DNA of 64,000 nt from Eledone cirrhosa (Eukaryota). The stretch lies in NCBI GenBank assembly GCA_964016885.1, contig OZ024740.1:225618001-225682000 (forward strand). Reading direction: 5' to 3'. Under the pieces are notes generated by a model. It did no database searches and was not told the origin of the DNA. It saw nothing but the letters and a program-made list of their open reading frames with translations. Positions 19,426 to 54,207 of the stretch are shown in pieces (the first letter of the stretch is position 1; each line of letters opens with the position of its first letter). A program made the translations under genes and the position numbers.

Positions 19426-20836
19426 TTATTGTTCATTTAGCTTGGGTTGGATTTTATCAATAAAATTATTTTCTTTGATTTTTCTCTTGATTTCACTTGG
19501 GCTGTGTAATTTGTAGAATGTAAATATTATAAATATTCTTTGACCACAGATGGTTACTCAGGGGTACCTGACGGACATTTGGGTCTCTGATTTGTTGTCG
19601 GTGCACCCGTGCACGTTCCGATAGTGCATTTCCAGTTTGAACGACATATAGTTAGTTCTTCACAATTCAGGCATTTAATGCAGTAAATTAGATTTCTGAT
19701 TTTGCAGTTCATATTTGTATATGGGAATATTTTCCCAGTTTTTGTGTACATATATTGACCGTTGTGTATGGATTGACATGTGCCACATCGACTATCATTG
19801 CATTCAGATGCAGTGAATGATTGGTCTTTGTTGTTAGTTCAAATTTTGTTTTTGTTAGTAATTGCCTCAAATTTTTCGGCTGTCTTTTACTAAGAGTCAA
19901 AGATCGGTCTGTGATGAAGCCTTTTAATTCATTACTTTGAGCAATGATCGGTAGGTTTGCTTTGGTAGTGTTGAAGATATTCTGGGTTGTGAAGGTATGA
20001 CCAGTTTCTTCTTCCTTGGGTTGTCCTGAGTTGTTGTATAGGTATTTTTATAGCCCGCTGTATGCCATTTTCTATAAGTAGAGATGGGTATTTTTGTTTG
20101 AGCAAAAATTCTCTCACTCTGTTAGGCGTTTGTTCCTGGTATTCGTATCTTCTACAATGGTACAAATTCTTCTGGTTAGGCAGTATGGGGTGTTGCGTTT
20201 TGTATGAGGTGGATGGTATAACTTAAAATTCAGATATTGATGGGTGTGTGTGTGTTTATAATATATATCCGTGGTAATGGTGGTGTCGTTTTTTATTACC
20301 ATTATATCTAGGAATGGTAATTCGGTCCTACTCATCTATTTTGTGAATTGGAGAGATGGGTGCAGGTTATTAAGGAGGATATTGAACTCATCCAGAGTAT
20401 CTAGAGATTCTGGCCAGATGATGAAAGAATCGTCAAGGTATCTCTTCCAAGATTTTTCAATGTACCTTCTAAAGTCAGTGCTATATTTTTCCTCTATTTC
20501 TTGGTAGAGTTGTTGTTCTAAGTATCCCATTACAGGGTTCGCGTATATAATATATATAGTATATATATAATATATATATAATATATATATATATATATAA
20601 TATATATATATAATGTATATAAACATATATAATATATCTTATATATATATATATATATATAATGTATATAAACATATATAATATATCTTATATATATATA
20701 TATATATATATATATATATATATATATATATATATATATATATATATATATATATATATATATACATTATGAAGAGAGAAGAAACATTTAGATATAATTA
20801 ATAATAAAGTGTATCATACCTAAACTGCTCCTACAT

Positions 20837-20926
20837 TCCTCGACTACGTAGTTTCGTGGCATAAACAAAAACAATATATCATAAAGATATAGCGTCCTTG
20901 CGAGGTCTGCCGACTTATCAAGAGGA
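20837..20926 (-). ncRNA. Type I hammerhead ribozyme, U3-A8 variant (595-bp monomer)
   Basis: Reverse complement of the motif at 22934-23023. Confidence 0.85.
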
Positions 20927-21431
20927 TACCTCATTTTACTAGTCTCAAGAACGCGTCTACACGACGTGAGAAAGAATCCCAAAAGGCGGAGGGGGAGAGA
21001 GTCACGCGATATAACGGTCGAGAAACAGAGCTAAGCCTCTTATAACCACGAAGAAAATACCACGGAGGCGGAGGGGGTATTCATATCGAGGCCGTAGAAG
21101 AGGTGGTGAAGAAGACGAGAAGTATGAGTAATGGAAGCTTTCCAGTTGTCCCCACACTTCAAAGATTGCTCGACCAGAGGGAGTTATTAAAAATATATTT
21201 AGAAACACACAGATACATGCGGACACACACATATATACATGAATGCATCCGCACCCAACTGTGAGTTAAGGGTGCCAGCTTCACCGATGTTGCTCAATGA
21301 ATGACTGGGACAGACCAATTCAGTTGAACTAGACTGAACCAGTATCAGAGTTAAAAATACATTATGAAGAGAGAAGAAACATTTAGATATAATTAATAAT
21401 AAAGTATATCATACCTAAACTGCTCCTAAAT

Positions 21432-21521
21432 TCCTCGACTACGTAGTTTCGTGGCATAAACAAAAACAATATATCATAAAGATATAGAGTCCTTGCGAGG
21501 TCTGCCGACTTATCAAGAGGA
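21432..21521 (-). ncRNA. Type I hammerhead ribozyme, U3-A8 variant (595-bp monomer)
   Basis: Same motif, 595 bp from the previous copy. Confidence 0.85.
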
Positions 21522-50745: not shown

Positions 50746-50788
50746 GTAGTCCTGATGAGTTCTAACAAGAATGAAACGCGTAGATTAC
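50746..50788 (+). ncRNA. Minimal type I hammerhead ribozyme (310-bp monomer)
   Basis: Same motif. Confidence 0.92.
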
Positions 50789-51096
50789 TTCCCTTGCTTT
50801 TATCGAGAATCTAATTGTAATACGTGACGTATTCTATTCTATAGCGATTATGTCTTCAAAATGTTTATTATAAACATACAGAATATTTTCGAATATTCTA
50901 TGTCTATATTCACATATATATCGCTATTTCAGAGCATTCATTCCAATATATATGTATATATATATATATATATATATGTATATACATATATATATATATA
51001 TATGTATATATATATGTATATATATATATATATATATATATGTATATGTATATATATATATATATATGTATATATATATATATATATATATGTATA

Positions 51097-54000
51097 TAAA
51101 AATAAAAATAAAAATAATAAAATAAACAATGAAAAATAAGGGGTGCTATCAGTCACAGTTGGGCGGGGTGCTGTCAACATATAGTTACATACAAGCATAC
51201 ACATGGATAAGAGAACAGACAAGAGTAGATAAGATAGATAGGATTAGGTAAGAGTAGGTAAAAAATAGGTGAAAAACAGACTTATAATATATATAAGAAA
51301 ATATTTAAAAAAAAATATATAACAAACTTACATATAAAATATAAAATATACAGATAATAGTGATACAGGGTAAGGAATGAAATAAAATAATATAAAATTA
51401 AGATTAAAATTATATAAAATAGAACATAATATAATATAATCATAAAATAAGATAAAATAAGGTAAACTAAAATAAAATTAAATAGACTAAAGTAAAATAA
51501 TATAATATAAGATATAATTAAATGTAATTAAATAAATAAATAAATAAAATTAAATAAATAAATAAAATTAAAATTAAAATTAAATAAATAAATAAATAAA
51601 TAAATAAATAAGTAAATAAATAAATAAATAAATGAAATTAAATAAATAAATAAATAAAATTAAATAAAATGAAATGAAATAAAATAAAATGAAATAAAGT
51701 AAATTGAGATAAGATATATATTTTTTTAGAATATATCTCTTGAATATATCAGGGGCCCACGAAGGCACTAAGTGTCACAGTTATCTGTATCACTTGACCA
51801 TTTTTTTAGAATATATTTCTTGAAAATATCAGGGGCCCACGAAGGCACTAAGTGTCACAGTCACCAGTATCACTTGACCATTGCAAGGCAATGGAGGCGT
51901 CCCAGGTTGGGCAGTCTCAAAAGTTCACTCGAAAGTCACGGGTGTGCATTCACACAGTTGAGCGGTGGGGTAATCACAAACCGGTTCACACCCGGGCAGG
52001 AGTCCAATGGTCAAACAGAGGTGCATCGAAGGAAGGTAGGAGAATTCACGTGCAGTAGCAAGAGGCCGAAAGCGAGGTGCAGGCGGGTTAGCCAAAGCAA
52101 GCAGACACAGTTGGAGCGCATACAAAAGATATATAAAAAGACAAAAGATATATAAAAAATAGCTTCAAGAGCCATGAAGTCACCGCATTGGGACATCACA
52201 ACATTGTACACACCAATATGTTCAGCACGTATATGCACATATACACACCACATGCATATGCAGAGACGGTATACATATATATATATTTTTTTATATACAG
52301 ACATATACAACCACCTACACCCATACACATATAAATGTATACACAGACACACACGCACACACACACAGCGTAGGACACCCGGGTCAAAGCTGATATTAAA
52401 CACAGAAATACCACATTAGGCAAGACCCACCACCACGGATAATACGTTCAAAATAAATACATACGATGAGATGTAGTAAAATAAAATTGATCCTACGGAG
52501 ATAATCATGTCCGCACGTGCCATTGCCCGATTTAAGTGTACACAGACCGTTAGTAACTACGGAGGGCTATCGGGGCCAAAACGTTACTTTCGGGATCATA
52601 ACAACGACCGTCAATATATAGAAGGCCGATCGTGCTAGAAAGACTTGTATGGGTGTAGGTGGTTGTATATGTCTGTATATAAAAAAAAATATATATATGT
52701 ATACCGTCTCTGCATATGCATGTGGTGTGTATATGTGCATATACGTGCTGAACATATTGGTGTGTACAATCTTGTGATGTCCCAATGCGGTGACTTCATG
52801 GCTCTTGAAGCTATTTTTTATATATCTTTTGTCTTTTTATATATCTTTTGTATGCGCTCCAACTGTGTCTGCTTGCTTTGGCTAACCCGCCTGCACCTCG
52901 CTTTCGGCCTCTTGCTACTGCACGTGAATTCTCCTACCTTCCTTCGATGCACCTCTGTTTGACCATTGGACTCCTGCCCGGGTGTGAACCGGTTTGTGAT
53001 TACCCCACCGCTCAACTGTGTGAATGCACACCCGTGACTTTCGAGTGAACTTTTGAGACTGCCCAACCTGGGACGCCTCCATTGCCTTGCAATGGTCAAG
53101 TGATACTGGTGACTGTGACACTTAGTGCCTTCGTGGGCCCCTGATATTTTTAAGAAATATATTCTAAAAAAATGGTCAAGTGATACAGATAACTGTGACA
53201 CTTAGTGCCTTCGTGGGCCCCTGATATATTCAAGAGATATATTCTAAACAAATATATATCTTATCTCAATTTACTTTATTTCATTTTATTTTATTTCATT
53301 TCATTTTATTTAATTTTATTTATTTATTTATTTAATTTCATTTATTTATTTATTTATTTACTTATTTATTTATTTATTTATTTAATTTTAATTTTAATTT
53401 TATTTATTTATTTAATTTTATTTATTTATTTATTTATTTATTTAATTACATTTAATTATATCTTATATTATATTATTTTACTTTAGTCTATTTTATTTTA
53501 TTTTAGTTTACCTTATTTTATCTTATTTTATGATTATATTATATTATGTTCTATTTTATATAACTTTAATCTTAATTTTATATTATTTTATTTCATTCCT
53601 TACCCTGTATCACTATTATCTGTATATTTTATATTTTATATGTAAGTTTGTTATATATATATTTTTTTTTTATATTTTCTTATATATATTATAAGTCTGT
53701 TTTTCACCTATTTTTTACCTACTCTTACCTAATCCTATCTATCTTATCTACTCTTGTCTGTTCTCTTATCCATGTGTATGCTTGTATGTAACTATATGTT
53801 GACAGCACACCGCCCAACTGTGACTGATAGCACCCCTTATTTTTCATTGTTTATTTTATTATTTTTATTTTTATTTTTATTTTTATTTTTATTTTTATTT
53901 TTATTTTTATTTTTATTTTTATTTTTATTTTTATTTTTATTTTTATTTTTATTTTTATTTTTATTTTTATTTTTATTTTTATTTTTATTTTTATTTTTAT

Positions 54001-54207
54001 TTTTATTTTTATTCTTATTTGTACTTTTACTTCCTTAATATCCTTTATCTTCTATTATTTTTCATTCTTCAATGTCTTGGATTTGTTATTGCTTGTGTGG
54101 TATGTAATTAACCTTTATGCTCTGATGAGTCTCACTTATAGTGCGGATGAAACAATGTTAGCAAGTAAAGATATGCATATGCTATAGGCGTTCTTTGTTA
54201 TTTATTA
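51097..54207. mobile_element. HHR-terminated non-coding element with about 1.23-kb inverted arms (51097-52327 / 52646-53885) and a 318-bp spacer, flanked by (TA)n
   Basis: Mirror-image ORFs in the track (51772..52155+ versus 52818..53201-). Internal 80-bp tandem duplication at about 51720/51800, (TTTTTA)n tract at 53860-54012, HHR near the right end. Confidence 0.88.
54118..54163 (+). ncRNA. Type I hammerhead ribozyme
   Basis: UGCU-CUGAUGA-GUC-U-CACU-UAU-AGUG-CG-GAU-GAAAC-AAU-GUU/AGCA. Confidence 0.8.

Follow-up and report, generated by a model that had tools for sequence, protein, structure and literature searches.

Paired 3' ends in head-to-head insertions at (TA)n tracts of Eledone cirrhosa point to probable two-ended priming by Penelope-like elements

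Why would unrelated sequences lie in (TA)n microsatellites as two divergent arms, joined back to back and each with its 3' end against the microsatellite? The question comes from a 64,000-nt stretch of the Eledone cirrhosa genome (OZ024740.1:225,618,001-225,682,000, forward strand; assembly GCA_964016885.1, 3.0 Gb), which we call the window. An earlier note had described this layout in five unrelated sequences and explained it by the symmetry of (TA)n, which would let both ends of a break prime reverse transcription on a ribozyme RNA. By self-comparison and direct reading we confirmed all five (TA)n-flanked arm pairs, named A to E here. They have no DNA similarity to each other, apart from a weak likeness of the C and E families in their open reading frames (ORFs), and their layout recurs genome-wide at other loci. 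We believe that it is probably the work of one complex of a Penelope-like element (PLE), which would prime reverse transcription from both cut ends of the TA tract at two protein-defined RNA sites, with the two cDNAs then joined by microhomology.

What carries this reading is the position of the 3' ends. Each family has two fixed ones, site 1 and site 2. Counted from the predicted cut of the hammerhead ribozyme, they lie at +78-80 and +244-250 in A and at +135-139 and +165-172 in D; in B, C and E the two sites are ~90, 85 and 94 nt apart. Of 94 other two-armed copies in which both ends are visible, 88 had one arm per site (D 23/25, A 25/27, E 11/12, C 16/17 and B 13/13; the three A samples gave 11/12, 6/6 and 8/9). 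When both ends were at a named site, 88 of 90 pairs were mixed (p = 3e-24 against 0.5). Pairing predictions that we wrote in advance held at 8 of 9 testable loci and then at 6 of 6. Copies with a single arm end at either site (D 7, A 22, E 8, C 6 and B 14 copies). The two ends are not equivalent, because each arm uses its own fixed RNA site.

The samples behind these counts were drawn in different ways. For D, the 150 matches listed out of 204 yielded 34 other loci (scoring covered 40 of 167 candidates); the first A sets comprised 36/38 other loci (39 of 1363 scored) and the E sample 20 loci (40 of 599 scored), 19 of them taken by rank and one, L110, picked for showing an inverted pair. These D, E and first A sets are biased to young, long copies. 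The extra A sample was the first 30 exact matches on C1, which amount to 14 insertions with one tandem duplicate counted once. The B sample was the first 30 of 26,528 exact pattern matches (29 insertions), and the C sample was 30 core matches (24 insertions besides the window copy). We left the first 30 C loci uncounted because the query held both ends, and a D pattern search that matched only a 6-locus sub-lineage was not used as an unbiased D sample. Ends and arms were classified by hand from mapping outputs. Excluded from the pairing count were L003, L027 and the L128 array (an end unseen), L225 (a 140-nt gap) and the copies that were fold-backs only (L132, L143, L201), while L130 and L140 were counted despite internal gaps.

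In the window, A lies between a (TA)n target tract at 20544-20764 and one at 23860-23880 that it has in common with B. Its left arm (20762-22021, minus strand) has 2.1 units of a 595-bp hammerhead tandem repeat and ends at site 1; its right arm (22021-23860, plus strand) has 3.1 units and ends at site 2. B consists of a left arm (23880-23931, minus) that ends at site 1 and a right arm (23931-24075, plus) that carries the ~90-nt tail and ends at site 2, followed by (TA)n at 24074-24116. C is flanked by TA-rich tracts at 31256-32254 and 32615-32976, and here the left arm (32255-32420, minus) carries the 85-nt tail and ends at site 2, the right arm (32424-32615, plus) ending at site 1. D has (TA)n on its left at 48684-49162 and, in common with E, on its right at 50946-51098. 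The left D arm (~49160-49763, minus; 2.0 units of a 310-bp hammerhead tandem repeat) ends at site 1 and the right one (49768-50947, plus; 3.8 units) at site 2. The left arm of E (51096-52645, minus) ends at a third position, in a TTTTTA tract, and its right arm (52646-54210, plus) ends at site 1, with (TA)n at 54206-55810. There is also a second B copy at 37624-38020, with a single arm that ends at site 2.

The two arms of a copy are often not nested. Nesting was absent from 27 of the 40 linear copies (E 4/11, C 12/16, B 11/13), in 24 of them with a margin of more than 10 nt, and seven arm pairs do not have any base in common. Because of this, neither arm of such a pair is a copy of the other. 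The 5' ends of D arms are also independent, with 3 of 28 pairs within 20 nt where 3.7 were expected. The arms share variants: of the rare ones seen in at least two units, 13 of 15 in D and 5 of 6 in A are present in both arms, and at L019, for example, they are found in 13/13 and 9/9 units. In D, the variants specific to a locus are fixed throughout the units of the two arms, divergence being 0.3% between arms and 1.8% between loci, and arrays with 26 and with 27 units hardly vary. We rejected later tandem expansion as the source of the D multimers, since no block-shared variant was seen in 26, 27 and 27 units. A dimer-circle reading of the window copy of A was dropped as well, because the variant phases do not fit it.

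The junctions between arms had microhomology of at least 2 nt in 30 of the 46 filler-free cases, against 18% at random, and filler was present at 24 of 70, a set in which two loci occur twice and four of the joints are fold-backs. At the L013 and L041 junctions a short segment is repeated back and forth, resembling template switching as it has been described in L1 twin priming. As a separate observation, the D arrays at L120, L121, L125, L126 and L128 have more than 25 units per arm and are almost free of variants, and L020 spans ~60 units; such long arrays may reflect processive copying, later amplification or assembly smoothing.

TA was present within 34 nt after 198 of 203 terminal ends, compared with 20% for random positions in the same TA-rich regions, so the expected enrichment of (TA)n at 3' ends is there. 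To what extent does TA explain the layout? The window also holds a TA-targeting long interspersed nuclear element (LINE), whose end in TA is clear by eye in 7 of 10 other copies. It is two-armed in 0 of 13 copies, whereas the samples of A, B and C drawn without regard to their ends gave 39 of 67. We conclude that TA symmetry alone is insufficient for the layout, and that self-complementarity of (TA)n, the cause offered in the earlier note, is not enough. We also rejected the idea that the sites are merely the best TA match, as longer TA-like runs in the RNAs (A +200-206, B +45-62 and C -8..0) are unused. This suggests that the sites are probably set by protein or fold. The LINE is 3 kb long, with an apurinic/apyrimidinic endonuclease, a reverse transcriptase (RT) and a 10-bp tandem tail, and lies at 47270-48684, 58561-61589, 63261-63852 and 63941-64000. 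Its copies are few (11 matches), and two of them face each other across one TA tract. A second LINE RT ORF (55893-57512, minus) adjoins the 5' region of the first.

With these results, we suggest the following course of events. The GIY-YIG nuclease of the element would cut (TA)n on both strands, and each free 3' end would start a cDNA at its own protein-defined site, helped by 2-9 nt of TA pairing. Both cDNAs would run toward the 5' end of the RNA, stop independently and be joined by a short microhomology or filler; where priming succeeds only once, a single arm would result. For A and D the template would be a circular monomer that both ends copy round repeatedly, giving multimeric arms of one variant. 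The fixed variants and nearly invariant arrays of D are what one circular monomer would yield if both ends copied it, and a transcript of a homogeneous source array is the alternative. The earlier note's proposal that the two sides of a cut in TA both prime, with back-to-back joining of the products, is supported by the pairing in 88 of 94 copies, the non-nested arms and the junction microhomology. The integration system that it described is not new but the published PLE signature (PMC8557442, PMC3846280), working like L1 twin priming. Going further, it is conceivable, at somewhat less than even odds in our judgment, that two-site twin priming by an asymmetric dimer on one RNA is the standard route of Neptune-type PLEs, and that on circular retrozyme RNA it turns into reverse transcription by a double rolling circle, with more than 25 identical units written each way from one circle.

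Other explanations have to be weighed against two-ended priming. A head-to-head DNA intermediate might form off target and have its two ends trimmed at different sites by the endonuclease before integration. This would account for the one-sided tail, which PMC8557442 suggested to be a resolution product, and the anole PLE enzyme cuts the DNA of its own pseudo-long terminal repeat (pLTR) at AT-rich sites (PMC11167929), while the sites here are AT-rich. We nevertheless consider it unlikely: copies with a single arm have either site as their end, followed by TA, both tail ends are RT starts on nicked target DNA in vitro (PMC11167929), and two cDNAs from one source are still required. Self-priming, in which a cDNA would fold back on itself so that its first arm serves as template for the second, is the hypothesis of PMC3846280, where palindromic junctions are reported in rotifer PLEs. 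Our loci include short fold-back palindromes (L132, L143 and L146 in B, L201 in C) and near-palindromic junctions (L196 in C, L134 and L139 in B). The arm with the tail would have to contain the other arm, though, which fails in the 27 non-nested linear copies and most plainly in the seven pairs that share no base, and D junctions are not palindromic. The pairing in five families argues against it too. Self-priming is contradicted as the main route, a role in which we rate it as quite improbable, and survives as a local side reaction. B has in addition a hotspot of 5' truncation and fold-back at the hammerhead core, 39-48 nt upstream of the predicted cut (L132, L143, L146 and other B loci).

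The two ends of one TA break could also be attacked independently, by two complexes that each bring a separate RNA. TA tracts here do gather many separate insertions, L200 and perhaps L107 look as if they had two templates, and the window copy of A is a mosaic. But independent complexes predict at most half mixed-site pairs, where we saw 88 of 90, and arms of different variants, where D arms share private variants; we regard this as very improbable. An artefact of library or assembly fold-back, or a later inverted duplication, we find hardly credible, even though the E junction is bridged by no listed contig in four public runs (X1, X4, X6 and X9), the listed contigs having the colinear form only. 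Arms end at different sites and differ by 0.2-4% in the window, the tested flank pairs are not mirror images (0 matches in 5 comparisons), LINEs in the same tracts are not inverted, and run X1 has TA loose ends at both of the D end sites. A Hi-C run (X21) had 0 reads on D.

Several observations weigh against our own reading, among them the short fold-backs and the unbridged E junction. The same site was used twice in L042 and L200, the latter a C copy with site 2 twice whose arms are no closer than random copies. Four copies (L005, L031, L099 and L245) have a third end position, and L005 is where our advance prediction failed. In the window, copies A to D follow the two-site rule and E does not, with its left arm in a (TTTTTA)n tract. 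The mosaic of variants in the window copy of A offers no single clean template, and L043 and L221 have some unit-to-unit mosaicism. Among the 20 C and E copies that could be tested, only 3 had the opposite arm as closest relative, and many of the overlaps were too short to decide. By folding and comparison of the families we found no common motif or fold at the two sites, and comparing A and D with six PLE ends gave no DNA similarity. The anole PLE is reported to prime without any need of homology and with no site difference between the top and the bottom strand (PMC11167929).

What are the families? As read from their motifs, B, C and E are the 3' ends of three autonomous PLEs of Neptune/Nematis type. 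E is the 3' part of a tandem element with a 4904-bp period, an ORF with RT and GIY-YIG, and a 94-nt tail. Followed upstream, B and C run into ORFs built like that of E, and in all three families a YRDD motif is followed by a GIY-YIG-type motif in one ORF (L108, L199 and L190; by motif only). The C and E ORFs are 45% identical over 398 aa. A Cys-rich linker, resembling the CX2-5CxxC before GIY-YIG, is found in the B, C and E ORFs, and together with YRDD and GIY-YIG it fits the definition of PMC8557442, which is why we use the label; it is given by motifs and covers both Neptune and Nematis. The PLE ORFs had no Pfam match and no useful PDB match. B and C show inverted copies and tails, and E shows tandem copies and a tail.

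A and D are non-coding, retrozyme-like hammerhead tandem repeats. Each unit has a type I hammerhead, as non-LTR retrozymes do, and their RNAs fold as highly self-paired when computed as circles. The 595-bp unit of A is above the 170-400 nt of PMC7229834 and inside the 51-972 bp of Li 2026 (bioRxiv 10.64898/2026.07.22.740005). The 5' ends of A are enriched within 20 nt of the predicted cut (8/56, p = 8e-4), and those of D are not (5/61). Exact motif matches number 7,047 for A and 26,528 for B across the genome. A and D carry the same integration signature as B, C and E. The proposal of a system common to autonomous PLEs and ribozyme parasites is supported as to the sharing; as to parasites, only A and D are non-coding, and B, C and E are truncated autonomous PLEs.

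A type I descriptor found outward-pointing hammerheads in A (5), D (6) and E (1), and one further match at 34015 that is unrelated to A-E. Those of A have a U3-A8 core, a variant described for PLEs (PMC4209133), with predicted cuts in the right arm after 22422, 23018 and 23613 (plus strand). The right arm of D has four with canonical cores, and E has a minimal one at 54118-54163. The hammerheads of B and C are atypical, missed by the descriptor and read by eye; the right arm of the window copy of B keeps only the 3' half of the fold, and that of C has a weak-stemmed one at ~32507-32570. Rfam support is weak, with a match to HH9 for D alone, at an E-value of 0.003 and under the gathering score. 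A scan of the whole window had no hammerhead among the best 150 of 259 rows, and isolated hammerhead folds scored no better than shuffled sequences. All the hammerheads found in A-E have their sense strand outward, as had been noted. Orientation is not random elsewhere either: a hand count of the first 100 A hammerheads listed for C1 gave 15 neighbours on opposite strands no more than 1.2 kb apart, all 15 of them divergent (p = 3e-5). Hammerhead pairs on opposite strands, 100-700 bp apart, were noted in PMC4209133.

How much of this is new? PLEs with an endonuclease (Craig 2021, PMC8557442; Arkhipova 2013, PMC3846280) share with our families the RT, the CX2-5CxxC linker and GIY-YIG, a pLTR hammerhead, partial tandems, inverted 5'-truncated copies, a tail often at one inverted end only, and a bias to microsatellites and TA. 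That PLEs mobilise retrozymes has been proposed (Cervera and de la Pena 2020, PMC7229834; Li 2026), and A and D resemble the animal non-LTR retrozymes of these papers as non-coding type I hammerhead tandems that self-pair as circles. Inverted PLE copies, the one-sided tail, the TA bias and the dependence of retrozymes on PLEs are therefore already published, and our observation is a sharper version of a known PLE signature. Unlike the PLEs in print, B, C and E have tails of 85-94 nt rather than 30-40, and the tail is not optional but near-obligately paired (one arm with it and one without), with arms often non-nested. A and D differ from described retrozymes in bearing the PLE integration signature, namely divergent multimeric arms, two fixed ends and the TA target, which is not described in the parts of PMC7229834 (0 occurrences of "inverted") and Li 2026 that we drew on.

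In L1 twin priming, both nicks prime on one RNA and microcomplementarity joins the cDNAs into a 5' inversion (bioRxiv 10.1101/2024.08.27.596794; dual priming, PMC2837659). A-E are alike in the apparent two-ended priming and in the inversion-type product. In L1, however, the second primer uses chance internal sites in a minority route, whereas here both starts are fixed and, in the samples not selected by their ends, 39 of 67 copies are two-armed; the enzyme class differs, A-E have no poly(A), and target-site duplications are unreadable in (TA)n. The closest biochemistry is that of the anole Poseidon PLE, which in vitro cuts and extends both strands, has two internal starts bounding the tail and an AT-rich target, and is predicted to be a dimer (Frangieh 2024, PMC11167929). 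Two start sites, an AT-rich target and, as we propose, priming on both strands are found here too. In the parts of that work that we drew on, its two sites are not tied to the pair of arms within an insertion, and the near-obligate pairing of site 1 with site 2 in five families does so.

The origin of tandem and inverted PLE copies and of the one-sided tail is named as an open problem in PMC8557442. Our contribution to it is the pairing rule, seen in three autonomous families and in two that are non-coding, together with the test for nesting and the comparison with a LINE. We found no published statement of the pairing rule or of PLE twin priming in a search that left outside the 2005-2008 Penelope papers and most subscription papers and supplements; novelty may also depend on what is in the PMC7229834 model figure and in Figs S1-S2 of PMC11167929. 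For animal retrozymes, use of PLE machinery was earlier argued from co-occurrence and sequence trees, and the insertions here give evidence at the level of single copies.

Finally, the window contains other related elements. A further PLE family is present at 24704-26980 (plus; GIY-YIG at 25248-25834) and 37010-37535 (minus). The copy at 37010 ends ~80 nt short of the end used by the copy at 26980, and both are in TA, which is the same two-site pattern. Frameshifted pieces of another element with a Penelope-type RT lie at 29-2200 and 20086-20545 (minus).

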